Of a stretch of DNA of 41,007 nt, positions 3,704-34,887 are shown in pieces; position 1 is the first letter of the stretch; the number at the start of each line of letters is the position of its first letter. The notes under the pieces were generated by a model. That model saw only the letters and a program-made list of their open reading frames with translations, did no database searches and was not told where the DNA came from. The position numbers were made by a program, and so were the translations under genes. Origin of the DNA: a virus. The stretch lies in UHGV virus genome UHGV-0067929; one strand, 5' to 3'.

Positions 3704-4288
3704 TTATTGTTTGTTTTTTTCGTTCTGGTTGATGACAAATTCAATGTAACTTTCGATCTTTGCCTTCTCTGTTTCAGGTAACAATGCGTAGCGCGAGCGG
3801 TCATAGTTGATAGTTGCAGGGTCATGCGGATGGATCAGTAGTTCATATCCGTGACGCCCGAATGCAGATGCAACATTCTCCAGGGTGGAAATGGAAACGC
3901 TGACCTCATTGTTTAACAGGCGGCTTATTGTCACCTGGGCGACGCCGGATGCGCGGTGAAGTTTTCCCTGAGTTGAAAGGTCGCGGCTTTCACTCATCCA
4001 GCGTTCCAGGTTGTGAGCTGCCAGCTGACCAATGTCGCTTGGGCCGACAGGCTGAAAACCTTCCTGAGAAAGCGAGCGATCGATATCAAGCCAGTTACGG
4101 GGTTTATTGGCGGCAGCTTCAATTTTTCGCGCAACCTGGTCGCCGATAACCTTCTTGCCAAGAGCCCAGCGGTTTACCAGATTTGCCTGAGTTCCAAGTT
4201 TTTCTGCCATCCGCGTCTGAACACCATTGAATTCACGGTCGATCAAGTCGTTGAGATTTTGCCTGCGGACGTCCTGGATACTTTTCAT
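3704..4288 (-). CDS. CI-like prophage repressor with two HTH regions, no peptidase S24 domain
   Basis: 194 aa; HTH-like segments MAEKLGTQANLVNRW and SGVAQVTISRLLNNEVSVSISTLENVASAF; divergent from Cro-like gene with palindromic operators between. Confidence 0.65.
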   Translation of the reverse strand: MKSIQDVRRQNLNDLIDREFNGVQTRMAEKLGTQANLVNRWALGKKVIGDQVARKIEAAANKPRNWLDIDRSLSQEGFQPVGPSDIGQLAAHNLERWMSESRDLSTQGKLHRASGVAQVTISRLLNNEVSVSISTLENVASAFGRHGYELLIHPHDPATINYDRSRYALLPETEKAKIESYIEFVINQNEKNKQ

Positions 4289-4342: not shown

Positions 4343-4359
4343 ATTACCCAACAGGTAAA
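4343..4359. promoter_or_regulatory. operator-like palindrome ATTACCCAACAGGTAAA (repressor/cro intergenic)
   Basis: Same ATTACC-N5-GGTAA pattern. Confidence 0.55.
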
Positions 4360-12890: not shown

Positions 12891-12967
12891 TGGCGTGGCA
12901 TGCAGGATTCGAACCTGCGACCAACTGCTTAGAAGGCGGTTGCTCTGTCCAACTGAGCTAATGCCAC
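12891..12967 (-). tRNA. tRNA-Arg (anticodon UCU), phage-borne argU-like
   Basis: 77-nt cloverleaf read by hand: 7-bp acceptor stem GTGGCAT/ATGCCAC, D-arm TAGCTCAGTTGGACAGAGC, anticodon loop CTTCTAA, T-arm GCAGGTTCGAATCCTGC, CCA end; one C-A mismatch in anticodon stem. Confidence 0.8.
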
Positions 12968-29382: not shown

Positions 29383-29796
29383 ATGAAGGAATTATTGCTG
29401 TTATCGGTATTTTTGATATCCGCTTGCTCGACATCCTATGATGTTTATGACGGTGTTGATAAGGCATATTGCGACAAAGTTAAAATGGATTTTTCTCTTG
29501 CCAAGACGGCGAAGGATAGTTGTATTGATCACTACGTCAAGACTTATACCAAGCCAGCATCATCGGCATCTGATATTGCTGAAGGTGCTGTGTTTGAGTG
29601 TAACAAGGTGATATCCATCGCAGCGAGTTCTTCATACGATGCTGCTGTATGTGCAATGGCTGAAAGAAACGGCATGTCAGTGCAAAAAGTTAATAGCATG
29701 ATAAACAGTAATGACGAAGCCAAAATAAGAACTGATATCAGCTCGGTGAAAAAAGATGCCATGAACAGAGTTGTAAAATATCAGTCATCTTTATAA
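29383..29796 (+). CDS. lipoprotein (moron; candidate superinfection-exclusion factor)
   Basis: Signal peptide with lipobox LISAC; low GC compared with flanks; five further Cys in mature part. Confidence 0.6.
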   Translation: MKELLLLSVFLISACSTSYDVYDGVDKAYCDKVKMDFSLAKTAKDSCIDHYVKTYTKPASSASDIAEGAVFECNKVISIAASSSYDAAVCAMAERNGMSVQKVNSMINSNDEAKIRTDISSVKKDAMNRVVKYQSSL

Positions 29797-29853: not shown

Positions 29854-30540
29854 TCAGAAGAACCCTGCTTTGTCGTTGATGTACTCCGCGTGCGTCTGGA
29901 TATCACGCAGGCATTTGTTCACACCGACGATGTAGCAGAACATGGTGGTCAACTCCGCCGCCGCGCCCGATACGTCGTGCCCGTCGTCCTGTAACTGGTT
30001 CAGCAGATTCATCAGCAGTGAGTTCTCCGTCAGGCCGAGAACACCAGACGGCGAGTGAATCAGGCTGCGGTAGCCGGGCTTCAGTGGGGCGCTGTAGGTT
30101 TTGTTCTCTATCTTCATTGCCTGCATCACTGCTGATGCTGTGGCGTTGGCTACTTGGTCGGCAACCATCTTTATGCGTTCTTCCTGCGGGAGCGAGTTTT
30201 TAATGTAACTTCCGGTGCGGCGGATCTGAGGAAGAACCTCACCTGTAACCCATTTACGAAAGCGGTATGGGATAGTGCCTGGTGTCACCGCATCGCGGCA
30301 GCGGAGGATCAGTGTGTAGAGGCCTGACTCGTTGATAATATTGGTTTCGCCTTGACGGCCTAAGTTAAATTTAGCCCTTTCATCATCATCAAGAGATTTT
30401 ATTGACATAGTGGGGTTTGTCAGTTGAAGAGCTTTAATAACGTCTTTGGCAACAAACCAAGGATTTCCATCAATAACAATGGCTCGAATGGTTGCTTCTG
30501 ATTCAAAATGAAAAACAGATGGGGTTACGTTAGCAGTCAT
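29854..30540 (-). CDS. Bro-N domain antirepressor-like protein, paralogue 1
   Basis: Start set to ATG 30540 by alignment with paralogues (MTANVTPSVFHFE...IRAIVIDGNPWFVAKDV Bro-N signature); constant C-terminal module shared with 31767-32459 and 33543-34238. Confidence 0.75.
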   Translation of the reverse strand: MTANVTPSVFHFESEATIRAIVIDGNPWFVAKDVIKALQLTNPTMSIKSLDDDERAKFNLGRQGETNIINESGLYTLILRCRDAVTPGTIPYRFRKWVTGEVLPQIRRTGSYIKNSLPQEERIKMVADQVANATASAVMQAMKIENKTYSAPLKPGYRSLIHSPSGVLGLTENSLLMNLLNQLQDDGHDVSGAAAELTTMFCYIVGVNKCLRDIQTHAEYINDKAGFF

Positions 30541-30770
30541 AGTGATCACCTTTGTAGTTAGGTTAATCACCACTACCGACGCCAATCGGTTGGTGGTGAA
30601 CTGTGCAGGGTTGGCGTAACCGGCTACAAAGGACCCGGCGCACCTTTCGGTGCCCCCACACAGCCCACCATAGAATAGGTGCGCTTTACACATAAAAAAA
30701 CCGCTTATGCGGCATATGTGCCTCTGTAGTAATCCGGGACGCCAATCCCGGCACTGGATTTTGCCAGTGC
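30541..30770 (-). ncRNA. structured leader RNA of Bro paralogue 1 (candidate c4-like regulatory RNA)
   Basis: Reverse-complement copy of the same leader; elements at 30721-30729 (mimic), 30624-30632 (anti-SD), 30549-30557 (SD). Confidence 0.45.
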
Positions 30771-30805
30771 CCGATTACTATGGCACAAGAGGAGTGCGAT
30801 GTAAA

Positions 30806-30822
30806 TTTACCGCAAGGGTAAT
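30806..30822. promoter_or_regulatory. operator-like palindrome TTTACCGCAAGGGTAAT at Bro paralogue 1 leader promoter
   Basis: Abuts -35 TTTACA (minus strand). Confidence 0.5.
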
Positions 30823-30968
30823 AATAGACACAGGTGGATATTAAAATCAACCATATTTGGTTAAGGTGTATAAAAGAGCCACCAGCGAGAAATTGTACCG
30901 CGATGTAAAATAACGAGCATCTGCTGGCTTACAACCAGCGATGTTTCAAATTTGTCACTACTATCAAC

Positions 30969-31367
30969 GTGCCATTCCACGGCGCAGAACTTTATGTTGT
31001 CAATCACAACGGAGAACCGTACACCCCAATGAAACCTATCGTTGAGGGAATGGGTATGGATTGGGCTGCTCAATTTGTTAAATTAAAACAGAGATTTGTC
31101 AAAGGTATTTCGGAAATCGAAATACCTTCTGCTGGCGGTAAACAGTTAATGATATGCCTTGCCTTTCGTAAGTTTGCGGCTTGGCTTTCAAGCATTCAGC
31201 CAAACAAAGTCCGTCCTGAAATCCGCGACAAGGTAATCCAGTATCAGGAAGAGTGTGACGATGTGCTCTACGAGTACTGGACTAAAGGCCATGTGGTTAA
31301 CCCACGCAAAGCTAAAAAGGCGTTGCCGGGTAAAATAACCACTGAACAGCAGGAGGTTTACACTTAA
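30969..31367 (+). CDS. phage antirepressor-like domain protein (Ant N-terminal-type), possibly 5'-truncated
   Basis: FHGAELYVVNHNGEPYTPMKPIVEGMGMDW...RKFAAWL...QEECDDVLYEYW; only a GTG start with no SD, no in-frame ATG upstream. Confidence 0.4.
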   Translation: MPFHGAELYVVNHNGEPYTPMKPIVEGMGMDWAAQFVKLKQRFVKGISEIEIPSAGGKQLMICLAFRKFAAWLSSIQPNKVRPEIRDKVIQYQEECDDVLYEYWTKGHVVNPRKAKKALPGKITTEQQEVYT

Positions 31368-31391
31368 CACTTGATTACATTAACACAAAAT

Positions 31392-31408
31392 ATTACCTTA
31401 AAGGTAAT
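31392..31408. promoter_or_regulatory. operator-like palindrome ATTACCTTAAAGGTAAT
   Basis: Perfect arms. Confidence 0.55.
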
Positions 31409-31484
31409 ATCTTGCTTTCAGGTGATCAAGCGTTAAACGCAATCAACCAAATACGGTTGATTTTAATGTTTCTTCGCGCTTATC

Positions 31485-31501
31485 ATTACCTTTACGGTAA
31501 A
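31485..31501. promoter_or_regulatory. operator-like palindrome ATTACCTTTACGGTAAA at Bro paralogue 2 leader promoter
   Basis: Abuts -35 TTTACA at 31502-31507. Confidence 0.55.
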
Positions 31502-31530
31502 TTTACATCGCACTCCTCTTGTGCCATAGT
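31502..31530 (+). promoter_or_regulatory. sigma70-like promoter of Bro paralogue 2 leader
   Basis: TTTACA - 17 nt - (TGc)CATAGT extended -10. Confidence 0.45.
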
Positions 31531-31536
31531 AATCGG

Positions 31537-31766
31537 GCACTGGCAAAATCCAGTGCCGGGATTGGCGTCCCGGATTACTACAGAGGCACATATGCCGCAT
31601 AAGCGGTTTTTTTATGTGTAAAGCGCACCTATTCTATGGTGGGCTGTGTGGGGGCACCGAAAGGTGCGCCGGGTCCTTTGTAGCCGGTAAGACCAACTCT
31701 GCACAGTTCACCACCATCTGATTGGTCTCAGCGGTGGTGATTAACCTAACTACAAAGGTGATCGCC
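31537..31766 (+). ncRNA. structured leader RNA of Bro paralogue 2 (candidate c4-like regulatory RNA)
   Basis: From predicted TSS: two GC hairpins (31536-31573), SD mimic CTACAGAGG (31578-31586), hairpin+U7 (31594-31613), GAAA-capped hairpin (31654-31667), anti-SD CCTTTGTAG in a loop (31675-31683), 8-bp hairpin (31708-31740), SD CTACAAAGG (31750-31758). Confidence 0.45.
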
Positions 31767-32459
31767 ATGAATACCAAACCTTCCATCTTTTCCTTTGAGT
31801 CATCCTGCCAGATCCGTATGTTCATGATTGACGGAGAACCTTGGTTTGTCACCAAAGATGTGTGCAATGCTTTGAATATTGATGTTACACAAGCGAGAAA
31901 ACTTGATAAAAAAGGCTGGAACAAAAAGGGGCTGTATTCAATACAGACCCCTGGTGGAATACAAGAACTATCCATAGTTTCAGAATCAGGTCTCTACATC
32001 CTTATTCTGCGTTGCAAAGAGGCAATGACTGAGGGAACGAGAGCATTCAGATTTCTTGAATGGGTTACAGGTGAGGTTCTTCCTCAGATCCGCCGCACCG
32101 GAAGTTACATTAAAAACTCGCTCCCGCAGGAAGAACGCATAAAGATGGTTGCCGACCAAGTAGCCAACGCCACAGCATCAGCAGTGATGCAGGCAATGAA
32201 GATAGAGAACAAAACCTACAGCGCCCCACTGAAGCCCGGCTACCGCAGCCTGATTCACTCGCCGTCTGGTGTTCTCGGCCTGACGGAGAACTCACTGCTG
32301 ATGAATCTGCTGAACCAGTTACAGGACGACGGGCACGACGTATCGGGCGCGGCGGCGGAGCTGACCACCATGTTCTGTTACATCGTCGGTGTGAGCAAGT
32401 GCCTGCGTGATATCCAGACCCACGCGGAGTACATCAACGACAAGGCAGGGTTCTTCTGA
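31767..32459 (+). CDS. Bro-N domain antirepressor-like protein, paralogue 2
   Basis: MNTKPSIFSFESSCQIRMFMIDGEPWFVTKDV Bro-N signature; SD CTACAAAGG 9 nt upstream; C-terminal ~145 aa near-identical to paralogues. Confidence 0.75.
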   Translation: MNTKPSIFSFESSCQIRMFMIDGEPWFVTKDVCNALNIDVTQARKLDKKGWNKKGLYSIQTPGGIQELSIVSESGLYILILRCKEAMTEGTRAFRFLEWVTGEVLPQIRRTGSYIKNSLPQEERIKMVADQVANATASAVMQAMKIENKTYSAPLKPGYRSLIHSPSGVLGLTENSLLMNLLNQLQDDGHDVSGAAAELTTMFCYIVGVSKCLRDIQTHAEYINDKAGFF

Positions 32460-32495
32460 CGGCGGCGGCACAGGGATGTGCCTTTAAATAATCCT
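32063..32495 (+). repeat. ~0.43-kb repeat R2 (3' half of Bro paralogue 2), inverted relative to R1/R3
   Basis: Reverse complement of 33543-33960 region with few mismatches. Confidence 0.8.
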
Positions 32496-32674: not shown

Positions 32675-33214
32675 GTGTTAAGTGAAGAAATGCAATTTGC
32701 CATGGCTGTGGCTCAAATCGTAAGTGCAGTCGCGGTTTCGCTTGGCTTGTTCATAGCTATCGCTACTATTATTTATAATGTAAATACAGCGAGAAAAGTA
32801 CACACTTCAGTATTCCTTGGTGAAAGCAGGTTTGATGTAGATTATAAGAAAGGCCTATCTACTATGCGCCGCATTCACGAGTCGAACAAATCATTCCGCT
32901 CTTATATGTATCCAAGCAATGGGCAGGCTGATCTTACGGATGAAGAAAAGATAGAGAAGAGAGAAATAATTTACTGTCTAGGTTTCTACGAACGCATGGC
33001 TGTGAGCGTGAAGCGGAAAACTTATGATGAGACCATGATTAAGGAAGTATTTTACAGCTCCGTTGTAAATAACTATCAGATTGCGCTACCTCTTATACAA
33101 GCTATTAGAGAAAAAGAAAACATAAACACATATTTTAAAGAATATGAATGGTTGGCCACACGATGGAAGGATTGTCCATTGAAGGATAAATCCCCGTGGT
33201 ACAAGTTTTGGTAA
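32675..33214 (+). CDS. membrane-anchored protein of unknown function (AT-rich moron)
   Basis: N-terminal hydrophobic helix (AMAVAQIVSAVAVSLGLFIAIATIIY) then ~140-aa soluble domain; markedly AT-rich coding region; followed by terminator. Confidence 0.6.
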   Translation: MLSEEMQFAMAVAQIVSAVAVSLGLFIAIATIIYNVNTARKVHTSVFLGESRFDVDYKKGLSTMRRIHESNKSFRSYMYPSNGQADLTDEEKIEKREIIYCLGFYERMAVSVKRKTYDETMIKEVFYSSVVNNYQIALPLIQAIREKENINTYFKEYEWLATRWKDCPLKDKSPWYKFW

Positions 33215-33491: not shown

Positions 33492-34021
33492 TGTGACATG
33501 TCACGATAGTTCCGTTTTGCACATCCCTGTGCCGCCGTTCTGTCAGAAGAACCCTGCCTTGTCGTTGATGTACTCCGCGTGGGTCTGGATATCACGCAGG
33601 CACTTGCTCACACCGACGATGTAACAGAACATGGTGGTCAGCTCCGCCGCCGCGCCCGATACGTCGTGCCCGTCGTCCTGTAACTGGTTCAGCAGATTCA
33701 TCAGCAGTGAGTTCTCCGTCAGGCCGAGAACACCAGACGGCGAGTGAATCAGGCTGCGGTAGCCGGGCTTCAGTGGGGCGCTGTAGGTTTTGTTCTCTAT
33801 CTTCATTGCCTGCATCACTGCTGATGCTGTGGCGTTGGCTACTTGGTCGGCAACCATCTTTATGCGTTCTTCCTGCGGGAGCGAGTTTTTAATGTAACTT
33901 CCGGTGCGGCGGATCTGAGGAAGAACCTCACCTGTAACCCATTTACGAAAGCGGTAGGGGATAGTTCCTGGTGTCACAGCATCGCGGCAGCGGAGGATCA
34001 GTGTGTAGAGGCCTGACTCGG
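33492..34021 (-). repeat. ~0.5-kb repeat R3 (3' half and 3' UTR of Bro paralogue 3)
   Basis: Direct repeat of R1, 3.7 kb apart. Confidence 0.8.
33493..33504. repeat. 12-bp perfect palindrome GTGACATGTCAC (copy d)
   Basis: Other flank of the Bro island core, next to terminator hairpin. Confidence 0.6.
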
Positions 34022-34238
34022 AGATGATGATCGATTCTTGCTCACCGCCAGGGGTGTCGGTTGAAGCGACGCCCTTCTCATCATCATCAAGTTTTCGAAC
34101 AGCATCTCGATGGTTTGCTATGCCTATAGCCCGACAAACATCTGAAGCGATAAACCATGGCTCACCATTAATGACGATTACTCGTATATCGCCTTGGGAT
34201 TCGAAAGAAAAAATGGACGTGCTTTTTGTAGCTGTCAT
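33543..34238 (-). CDS. Bro-N domain antirepressor-like protein, paralogue 3
   Basis: MTATKSTSIFSFESQGDIRVIVINGEPWFIASDV; SD CTAAAAGG; constant C-terminal module. Confidence 0.75.
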   Translation of the reverse strand: MTATKSTSIFSFESQGDIRVIVINGEPWFIASDVCRAIGIANHRDAVRKLDDDEKGVASTDTPGGEQESIIISESGLYTLILRCRDAVTPGTIPYRFRKWVTGEVLPQIRRTGSYIKNSLPQEERIKMVADQVANATASAVMQAMKIENKTYSAPLKPGYRSLIHSPSGVLGLTENSLLMNLLNQLQDDGHDVSGAAAELTTMFCYIVGVSKCLRDIQTHAEYINDKAGFF

Positions 34239-34468
34239 AGTGGTTACCTTTTAGTCTGGTTAATCACCACTACCGACGCCAATCGGTTGGTGGTGAACTG
34301 TGCAGGGTTGGCGTAACCGGCTAAAAGGACCCGGCGCACCTTTCGGTGCCCCCACACAGCCCACCATAATACGAATGTGGCCGTGCTATACGCATAAAAA
34401 AACCGCTTGCGCGGTGAATGCGCCTTTTAGTAATCCGGGACGCCAATCCCGGCACTGGATTTTGCCAG
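34239..34468 (-). ncRNA. structured leader RNA of Bro paralogue 3 (candidate c4-like regulatory RNA, variant specificity)
   Basis: Same architecture; elements at 34423-34430 (mimic CTAAAAGG), 34321-34328 (anti-SD CCTTTTAG), 34247-34254 (SD CTAAAAGG), all changed in concert. Confidence 0.45.
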
Positions 34469-34506: not shown

Positions 34507-34523
34507 TTTACCGCAAAGGTAAA
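34507..34523. promoter_or_regulatory. operator-like palindrome TTTACCGCAAAGGTAAA at Bro paralogue 3 leader promoter
   Basis: Same position relative to leader as 30806 and 31485 copies. Confidence 0.5.
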
Positions 34524-34553: not shown

Positions 34554-34826
34554 TTATCTGGTTTGCTTTCGTAATTGTTCGGCACAATAGTCGAGATGTG
34601 TTTGCAGATCCTGCATAGACATCTGTGAGCTGGTGACGTAGTTAATCAGTGCAGTCAGTTCGGCAAGTGGGCCATCGACATTAAATCCATCCTTATCGAG
34701 ATCCCGGAGTAATTTCATCAAGTGCGATCCCTCCACCAGTGACCTGACGCCTCCCGGCGTGTGAATCCTTTCGGTAAATCCGTCTTCCAGTGGATAGTGA
34801 TACTGCTGCATCTTAATCTTCTCCAT
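34554..34826 (-). CDS. stand-alone homologue of the Bro paralogue C-terminal module
   Basis: 90 aa; RIHTPGGVRSLVEGSHLMKLLRDLDKDGFNVDGPLAELTAL...DLQTHLDY aligns with LIHSPSGVLGLTENSLLMNLLNQLQDDGHDVSGAAAELTTM...DIQTHAEY. Confidence 0.5.
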   Translation of the reverse strand: MEKIKMQQYHYPLEDGFTERIHTPGGVRSLVEGSHLMKLLRDLDKDGFNVDGPLAELTALINYVTSSQMSMQDLQTHLDYCAEQLRKQTR

Positions 34827-34887
34827 GCAATAACTGTATATTTATACAGTAGCAAATAATTTGTTTGCTATCCAGCACGTTTTGCAA

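Follow-up and report, generated by a model that had tools for sequence, protein, structure and literature searches.

The 41,007-nucleotide (nt) viral genome UHGV-0067929, referred to below as the window, carries at position 31767 a gene whose product contains a Bro-N domain (Pfam PF02498, E = 1.8e-13, 51.4 bits against a cutoff of 25.6). This product also matches the PHROG anti-repressor Ant (E = 2e-50) and is, by family, an antirepressor-type protein. The element examined here is the leader of this gene, which contains two small-RNA elements, IsrK and C4. The leader is a member of the P1 c4/IsrK family, with a fold and two pairing sites characteristic of C4, and these sites covary among its relatives.

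The leader of the Bro-N gene at position 31767

In a first-pass annotation made from the letters alone, the leader had been read as a sigma70-like promoter (TTTACA-17-CATAGT) followed by hairpins and by three complementary 9-mers, the last of them in front of the ATG. The promoter lies where it had been placed and was also recovered by the promoter scan, and the three 9-mers, the U7 hairpin and the ATG were equally well located (Table 1). The two GC hairpins do exist, as do the upstream 9-mer and the U7 hairpin, but they are not separate elements: together they form a single terminated small RNA (sRNA) of the isrK type. The positions of the -35 and -10 boxes are kept across 33 related leaders, a set which includes the leaders of Gifsy-1 and APSE-8. 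The first position of the isrK model and the homologous Gifsy-1 locus (Hershko-Shalev et al. 2016, PMC4825925) would place the start of transcription at about 31537.

The identity of these elements comes from an Rfam scan of the whole window at gathering thresholds. Three pairs of isrK (RF01394) and C4 (RF01695) were found, each of them preceding a Bro-N gene; the leader of the 31767 gene is designated copy (or module) B, and its paralogues A and C. Membership of the c4 family, which had been anticipated for all three leaders, is confirmed by C4 scores of 79.5 (A), 74 (B) and 77.7 bits (C) for a cutoff of 45. All three matches are full-length (model positions 1-87), and isrK scores 76-78 bits in the three copies. 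The features of the isrK model, two 5' hairpins and a Rho-independent terminator with a T7 tract, are present.

The isolated 87-nt C4 folds into a Y shape with a predicted minimum energy of -42.4 kcal/mol (z = -4.2). This fold consists of a closing stem of 17 base pairs (bp), a GAAA-capped hairpin and a second hairpin with an 11-nt loop, whose CCGG/CCGG closure, already described in the first pass, appears in the minimum-energy structure as GCCGG/CCGG. An 8-nt single-stranded junction lies directly 3' of this second hairpin. Both pairing sites of C4 are left exposed by the fold: b' is displayed in the 11-nt loop as CCUUUGUAG, and a' in the junction.

The site b2, CTACAAAGG, overlaps the Shine-Dalgarno (SD) sequence and is the exact reverse complement of b', CCTTTGTAG, with which it forms 9 pairs; the duplex between b' and b1, CTACAGAGG, also has 9 pairs, one of them G-U. 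Both complementarities had been reported from the start and hold in the sequence. The SD is where it was expected, 8 nt before the ATG. The resemblance to the P1 c4 layout stands as far as order and spacing are concerned, with a correction to the naming: the loop corresponds to b' and its partners to b1 and b2. The complementary trio is real, but the initial reading missed a second site, a', with its own partners a1 and a2. In copy B, a' and a2 form 7 pairs, and a2 is presented on a small hairpin whose stem pairs 31718-31721 with 31728-31731.

This architecture is conserved. Applied to the 33 leaders, RNAalifold recovers both isrK hairpins, the terminator, the closing stem and first hairpin of C4, and the a2 hairpin. 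Compensatory double changes are found at 23 structural pairs; they affect the closing stem and hairpin 1 of C4, isrK hairpin 1, where they are numerous, and the stem of the a2 hairpin (columns 303/315 and 304/313). A further conserved pairing links CACCACC (31709-31715) to GGTGGTG (31733-31739), at columns 288-294 and 319-325 of the alignment. This pairing is the 8-bp hairpin of the first-pass annotation, but it does not constitute an extra element: one of its strands is the 3' strand of the closing stem of C4, so that in the unprocessed transcript it can only replace the C4 fold. In the consensus fold, the 5' strand of C4 may also pair with the region of the start codon.

Table 1. Positions of the features discussed in the text (window coordinates; modules A and C are listed after the leader under study)
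Feature	Position	Strand	Basis
Sigma-70-type promoter: TTTACA, 17-nt spacer, CATAGT, TG extension	TTTACA 31502-31507; CATAGT 31525-31530	+	sequence, promoter scan
IsrK-family sRNA, a1/b1 half	31537-31613	+	Rfam RF01394, 76.8 bits (cutoff 50)
isrK parts: hairpin 1; hairpin 2; single-stranded linker; terminator	31537-31556; 31557-31572; linker between; 31594-31613	+	predicted fold
Intrinsic terminator, GC hairpin and T7	31594-31613	+	terminator scan
a1 site TTGGCGT, loop of isrK hairpin 2	31562-31568	+	comparison with relatives
b1 site CTACAGAGG ('SD mimic' of the first-pass annotation), linker between hairpin 2 and terminator	31578-31586	+	sequence, fold
Short open reading frame, 35 codons, directly past the terminator and overlapping C4	31614-31721	+	sequence
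C4-family antisense RNA	31632-31718	+	Rfam RF01695, 74 bits (cutoff 45)
b' site (anti-SD) CCTTTGTAG, within 11-nt loop 31673-31683	31675-31683	+	sequence, fold
a' site AGACCAA, C4 single-stranded junction	31690-31696	+	fold, covariation
a2 site TTGGTCT, small hairpin loop 4 nt past the C4 end	31722-31728	+	covariation
b2 site CTACAAAGG, overlapping the SD (AAGG), 8 nt before ATG 31767	31750-31758	+	sequence
Bro-N antirepressor-type gene, 230 amino acids, regulated cargo	31767-32459	+	Pfam, PHROG
Palindrome TTACCTTTACGGTAA, candidate operator of a prophage CI-like repressor, abutting the -35, centred at about -44 from the predicted start	31486-31500	+	motif count; binding inferred
TTACC-N5-GGTAA copies, 15 nt each (first position)	3570, 3632, 4344, 4392, 4729, 6675, 6737, 10082, 10100, 13290, 30807, 31393, 31486, 32531, 34508, 34889		
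Module A, upstream half	operator-like palindrome 30807-30821; promoter 30805-30777; isrK 30770-30694; b1 30721-30729	-	Rfam, promoter scan
Module A, downstream half	C4 30675-30589 (b' 30624-30632); b2/SD 30549-30557; Bro-N gene 30543-29854	-	Rfam, Pfam
Module C, upstream half	palindrome 34508-34522; promoter 34506-34478; isrK 34471-34396; b1 CTAAAAGG 34423-34430	-	Rfam, promoter scan
Module C, downstream half	C4 34371-34286 (b' CCTTTTAG 34321-34328); b2/SD CTAAAAGG 34247-34254; Bro-N gene 34238-33543	-	Rfam, Pfam

Covariation at two pairing sites

As a bare pattern, the triple 9-mer matches once on the plus strand and twice on the minus strand of the window; block-shuffled sequences give 0.25 matches on average and 2 at most. 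This excess is only a few-fold over chance, and the case consequently rests on the covariance-model matches and on covariation in relatives. Related leaders were collected by anchored scans of viral contigs, using an anchor in isrK hairpin 2 and a longer one in C4, with the loop, the mimic and the SD left free to vary. These scans yielded 140 unique leaders and 34 loop sequence classes. The pattern used in the first scan, GGTGCGCCGG-N7-15-CCGGT, proved too loose: most of its viral matches, and all the genome_contigs ones listed, are chance occurrences in GC-rich DNA.

For 29 of the 34 classes, the loop finds at least 7 contiguous pairs on each side, between -94 and -97 and between +49 and +56; the classes devoid of two-sided pairing are mostly GC-rich chance matches left over from the first scan. 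The upstream complement falls in the isrK linker, the downstream one within a few bases 5' of the ATG. The mean length of cognate runs is 7.9 pairs upstream and 9.1 downstream; for non-cognate combinations of loops and targets it is 5.3 and 5.5, and the observed sum was never reached in 10000 permutations of the loop-target assignment. Within the set of 33 leaders, b2 offers at least 7 contiguous pairs in every leader, always just 5' of the ATG, and b1 does so in 30. The b1 and b2 sites are frequently one transition apart, both versions being tolerated through a G-U pair, which fits RNA-RNA pairing on this strand. The mutual pairing of loop, SD and mimic, first suggested on the basis of a single leader, is also supported inside the window by copy C, in which one 1-nt deletion is shared by b1 (CTA-AAAGG), b' (CCTTT-TAG) and b2 (CTA-AAAGG).

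At the second site, a' and a2 match perfectly in 33/33 leaders, the apparent miss in L343 being an artefact of the regular expression. The match between a' and a1 is found in 31/33, and both exceptions are hybrids. The covariation of a' with a1 and a2 extends over five classes, namely CGT, TCT, AAC, CAT and TTCGCAT, the last one being the TTCG variant of APSE-8. Predicted duplex energies of the exposed segments are specific for both sites: cognate b duplexes reach -12.0 or -8.6 kcal/mol versus -4.8 for non-cognate ones, and cognate a duplexes -10.3 or -9.2 kcal/mol versus -4.5 to -6.6. These duplexes were used in place of RNAcofold runs on whole C4 against whole targets, which were of no help (-0.4 to -3.5 kcal/mol, devoid of specificity) because loop-loop and junction-loop contacts between intact hairpins cannot be represented in this way.

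The explanation that the complementarity is fortuitous, or a by-product of local repeats devoid of any regulatory role, draws on the modest excess of the bare pattern over the block shuffles. The covariance-model matches lie far above cutoff, however, the three sites change in a coordinated manner through 34 loop classes and five a-site classes, and their position relative to the start codon is conserved. The probability of chance can be regarded as close to nil.

As judged from their domains, the genes following such leaders are of the antirepressor type throughout: among 143 distinct proteins, 60 have Bro-N, 41 Rha, 25 ORF6N and 2 AntA. Several related contigs harbor two or more isrK/C4 modules with differing a/b codes, in tandem in L341 and divergently oriented in L429, and the cassette is modular and often present in multiple copies per phage.

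Three modules, their codes and their surroundings

The window is an epsilon15/phiV10-type (Uetakevirus-like) podophage of E. coli, 97-98% identical to PAS61, phiv142-3, ZX5 and TL-2011b. The three modules are located near the tail-fibre gene, as in phiV10, and the closest phage and E. coli records examined annotate at these places only proteins or a 'terminator'. The leader is present in 465 of 5426 complete E. coli genomes. In the consensus scans, the pair formed by the promoter and the terminator was detected twice more on the minus strand of the window, and the three leaders are about 89% identical to one another.

Modules A and B have one b code and differ by their a sites (ACGCCAA/TTGGCGT in A, AGACCAA/TTGGTCT in B). 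The complete a/b codes are therefore (CGT, CTACAAAGG) for A, (TCT, CTACAAAGG) for B and (CGT, CTAAAAGG) for C. The upstream copies a1 and b1 are fully matched to C4 in copies A and C. The isrK half of copy B is identical to that of copy A, and its a1, TTGGCGT, fits the a' site of module A. Since TTGGTCT serves as isrK a1 in 10/10 distinct relatives with an AGACCAA junction, the isrK half of copy B is a hybrid. A second hybrid of this kind occurs in L369 (a1 TCT versus a' AAC). The divergent arms 30530-30826 and 31481-31777 are 94% identical, and the hybrid nature of copy B, read from these sequences, is most simply explained by gene conversion between them; taken together, the two hybrids suggest recombination or gene conversion between isrK and C4 halves.

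With 72.3 and 76.7 bits, the Bro-N domains of the two paralogues also exceed the Pfam gathering score. Over their C-terminal halves (about 130 amino acids, aa), the three Bro proteins are identical but for one residue, whereas their Bro-N domains are divergent. At the DNA level, the regions encoding these C-terminal parts (29854-30330, 31983-32462 and 33542-34076) are 90-98% identical. This pattern fits a concerted evolution of the common C-terminal module combined with diversifying N-terminal domains.

The window contains 16 copies of the palindrome TTACC-N5-GGTAA for 0.85 expected, a number reached by none of 100 shuffles. It abuts the -35 box of all three isrK promoters (30807, 31486 and 34508), and it is found at the equal position in 81 of 145 related promoter regions. 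The copies at 4344 and 4392 lie between a divergent HTH_3 repressor-like gene (194 aa, 3704-4288, minus strand) and a cro-like open reading frame (ORF). The palindrome is thus a candidate operator for the prophage repressor, through which the isrK promoters may be either repressed or activated. A copy also sits in a larger hairpin-forming region at 31351-31449, 3' of a 132-aa ORF. The miRNA-family matches obtained there were rejected, as they are far below cutoffs and reflect only the hairpin-forming palindrome.

No LexA box was found at the isrK promoters, the one-mismatch matches at 31644, 30648 and 34344 being all inside the C4 stem. A perfect LexA box, CTGTATATTTATACAG, is present at 34834-34849, 7 nt upstream of a 90-aa ORF (34554-34826, minus strand, phrog_450). 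This ORF is 42% identical to the common C-terminal domain of the Bro proteins (E = 9e-17) and points toward the promoter of module C. It may encode an SOS-controlled mini-antirepressor, and read-through from it into isrK-C, C4-C and bro-C is conceivable.

Other genes are interspersed with the modules. The 132-aa ORF mentioned above (30969-31367, plus strand), between the divergent modules A and B, has only the N-terminal antirepressor domain P22_AR_N; its equivalent is annotated in RefSeq as an incomplete pseudogene, and the ORF is probably what is left of a fourth antirepressor. Two genes resemble cargo. A DUF4760 gene (phrog_2284, 32675-33214, plus strand) separates modules B and C in a position which looks like a variable 'moron' slot, occupied in related E. 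coli prophages by a YafO-family toxin gene. A lipoprotein-like ORF of 137 aa (phrog_8691, 29383-29796, plus strand) is found beyond module A. No PADLOC defence-system match was obtained for the genes between the modules, the DUF4760 gene included, nor for the 137-aa ORF. The window also contains a tRNA gene at 12894-12967 (minus strand, 68 bits).

Proposed mechanism and relation to known systems

The most probable interpretation, to which a probability of roughly 85% is assigned, is that of an immI-type antisense-RNA cassette of the P1 c4/IsrK family, in which a released C4 would pair through a' and b' with a2 and b2 and block the ribosome-binding site (RBS) of bro, IsrK counteracting this effect. 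The sigma-70 promoter (31502-31530) would start a transcript at about 31537, and most transcripts would probably end at the terminator to give a 77-nt IsrK-type sRNA displaying a1 in a hairpin loop and b1 in its single-stranded linker. Transcripts reading through would carry C4, and the analogy with P1 c4 and with STnc1160 of Salmonella suggests that it could be excised to give a stable species of about 80 nt. The a' and b' sites of this RNA would then pair, in cis or in trans, with a2 and b2 of the bro mRNA and prevent ribosome entry, so that no antirepressor would be made in the lysogen or from a superinfecting phage of equal a/b code. IsrK, with its copies of the C4 target sites, would most likely act as a decoy for C4 or remodel the leader, thereby switching translation on, as for anrP in Gifsy-1. 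Read-through, processing, the direction of the regulation and the decoy role of IsrK are transposed here from P1 and Gifsy-1, and it is by the same analogy that the leader would gate Bro translation.

Several points weigh against this interpretation. The match to RF03163, c4-a1b1 ('a1, b1 targets of C4 antisense RNA', in the clan of C4), at 31524-31576 speaks for the interpretation by its E-value of 7.9e-10, but its score of 45.1 bits is 1.6 bits under the curated cutoff of 46.7. In copy B, a1 makes only 4 contiguous pairs with its own a', AGACCAA, even if b1 matches; the decoy step of this copy may be weakened, or served by cross-talk with module A. After C4 has folded or been removed, GGUGGUGAUUA can form a local hairpin which also traps the SD and the AUG, and for this reason cis structure probably adds to the control exerted by the leader. 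The start site, the termination efficiency, the processing and the sign of the regulation would all follow from homology. Finally, the published Gifsy-1 model is a cis structural switch with short-ORF coupling and not the titration of a C4-like RNA, and constitutive co-expression of STnc1160 did not counteract IsrK in Gifsy-1 (PMC4825925).

In Gifsy-1, IsrK ends at its own terminator and a fraction of the transcripts reads through; the read-through mRNA is translationally silent, anrP translation is raised more than 100-fold by IsrK provided in trans, and the processed RNA STnc1160 is detected downstream of IsrK (PMC4825925). Binding of Hfq, after which Rfam names the isrK family, and activation of antirepressor translation in trans are known only for the IsrK of Gifsy-1 (PMC4825925). 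A purely cis-acting leader of this style, where the C4 region would be an inactive mRNA structure remodelled by IsrK in trans so that a short ORF is translated and ribosomes couple into bro, is backed by the genetic and structural data of that system (PMC4825925). It also agrees with the ATG that follows the terminator T-run in all three copies of the window, with the conserved alternative CACCACC/GGUGGUG pairing and with the possible pairing of the C4 5' strand to the start codon. Nevertheless, the short ORF, positional equivalent of the Gifsy-1 'orf45', is conserved neither in frame nor in length: it has 35 aa in copy B, is fused in frame to Bro in copy A and has 24 aa in copy C, where it stops at a TAG created inside the loop by the loop deletion, and several relatives have no ATG after the terminator. 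A conserved peptide is ruled out by these differences among the three copies, and on this comparison it is the RNA structure which is conserved and not the peptide. A passage of PMC12197685 relays in the same sense that orf45 is conserved in nucleotide and variable in amino-acid sequence. In addition, the loop and the junction covary with the SD sites of the cargo gene itself and not with the RBS of the short ORF, the stems change by compensatory substitution as is typical of structured RNAs, and P1 c4, which scores 68.8 bits with the C4 model, is annotated as a trans-acting RNA of 77 nt. An exclusively cis-acting leader is consequently considered unlikely, even if the cis-switch and antisense models are not mutually exclusive.

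The pairing of C4 might alternatively act mainly on transcription, through premature termination or Rho-dependent polarity, as proposed for the P4 CI RNA and for P1 icd-ant. The control of icd-ant in P1 is Rho-dependent. The P1 record annotates icd as 'apparently required for expression of ant', and blocked icd translation is held to stop ant transcription. The authors of the Gifsy-1 study compare their locus with P4 seqA/CI/seqC, and a transcriptional fusion was raised 8-fold by IsrK in trans (PMC4825925). The corresponding translational effect is however 139-fold (PMC4825925), and the geometry of the window is unfavorable: b2 lies 8 nt from the ATG of the Bro-N gene and overlaps the SD of this very gene, no icd-type ORF was found between b2 and this ATG, and the terminator scan gave no terminator-like site between C4 and the ATG. 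A mainly transcriptional role is judged less likely still than an exclusively cis-acting leader, and a transcriptional effect is possible as an addition to the translation block.

The antisense-cassette interpretation can be extended, more tentatively. IsrK would be the dedicated anti-antisense decoy of C4, uniting P1 c4 and Salmonella IsrK into a three-RNA toggle. Three toggles with combinatorial a/b codes would here form a cross-talking antirepressor network, each of them tied to the CI-like repressor by the operator at about -44, and module C also to the SOS response by read-through from the LexA-controlled mini-antirepressor. This extension is possible, but its probability is held to be clearly below even odds. 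For this genome, the cassette would explain the silencing of three antirepressor genes in the lysogen, and it flags RNA genes which are missing from the closest records. At a larger scale, the survey counts no fewer than 34 b-codes and 5 a-codes, with cargo of the Bro-N, Rha, ORF6N or AntA type behind them; such a cassette may be viewed as a natural library of orthogonal RNA-RNA specificities and is a likely determinant of heteroimmunity among prophages.

Among known systems, the immI region of P1/P7 was compared site by site. The Rfam C4 model gives 68.8 bits for P1 and 74 bits for the window. The Y-shaped fold is common to the two, b' being located in the loop of the second hairpin and a' in the junction, and so is the order a1-b1-terminator-like hairpin-c4-a2-b2-ATG. 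Counted from the end of c4, a2, b2 and the ATG are at +4, +33 and +51 in P1 and at +4, +32 and +49 in the window. The sites of the P1 record are a1 TTGACAG, b1 GTTAGTGC, the c4 junction CUGUCAA and loop CACUAAC, a2 TTGACAG and b2 GTTAGTGA, followed by the ATG of icd. The C1 operator Op51 lies at the c4 promoter of P1, as the candidate repressor operator abuts each isrK promoter of the window. The differences concern the cargo proteins and the a/b sequences, which are unlike, and the target of b2. In P1, b2 lies over the RBS of icd, which precedes ant and encodes a small cell-division inhibitor, whereas it covers in the window the SD of the Bro-N gene, with no icd; an icd-type target coupled to ant is peculiar to P1 and not a defining trait of the family. 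Moreover, the upstream half of the window's leader is a full isrK-family sRNA above the cutoff of that family, while the P1 leader scores 51 bits with c4-a1b1 and 35 bits, below threshold, with isrK.

The Gifsy-1 locus (isrK-orf45(STnc1160)-anrP-isrJ) has isrK (79.3 bits), c4-a1b1 (48.1 bits) and C4 (69 bits) followed by anrP, so that isrK, C4 and the antirepressor gene stand in one order there and in the window. The loop of its C4, TCGGTGAT, has its complement, ATCACCGG-AGG, at the SD of anrP, and its a sites are TTGGCGT/ACGCCAA, as in the window. Gifsy-1 differs in being lambdoid, with one module beside antQ, whereas the window is a podophage with three modules, and its published mechanism is a cis switch with coupling to an upstream ORF (PMC4825925). 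No isrJ match was found by the window-wide Rfam scan at gathering thresholds, and AnrP was discarded as a homologue of the Bro proteins, the comparison revealing no homology. A further comparison is with the record of the Hamiltonella phage APSE-8 (LR794148), which already annotates an isrK sRNA, a C4 with putative a'/b' and a BRO-N protein in this order, and whose a and b sites covary as in the relatives of the window. It differs by being an annotation only, with a single module and the a class TTCGCAT/ATGCGAA.

In P22, the immI region (ant, arc, mnt and the sar RNA) also places an antirepressor in the late, tail part of a podophage genome, partly under the control of a small antisense RNA. 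The sar RNA is nevertheless a cis-antisense RNA from the opposite strand, and most of the control is due to the proteins Arc and Mnt; no such arrangement was found in the window. The CI RNA of P4, likened here by description only, is an antisense RNA processed from a transcript that has a copy of its target on either side of it (seqA and seqC), but it causes premature transcription termination and controls replication genes and not the RBS of an antirepressor (PMC4825925). It is cited by the Gifsy-1 authors as a structural analogue of IsrK; their study names the intervening region 'orf45', compares it with P4 seqA/CI/seqC and does not name c4 (PMC4825925).

The order isrK-C4-antirepressor in Gifsy-1 and in the APSE-8 record means that the layout of the window was already known, from experiments on relatives as well as from annotation. 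The family of the element has been described, and no new kind of mechanism is involved. What is added here is the survey of two-site, many-code covariation, an array of three codes with a hybrid decoy, the link to an operator, and an identification in the Salmonella system itself: sequence comparison indicates that the Gifsy-1 'orf45' is a C4 RNA and that IsrK is the a1/b1 half of a c4 system, which suggests a simpler reading of the Salmonella data.

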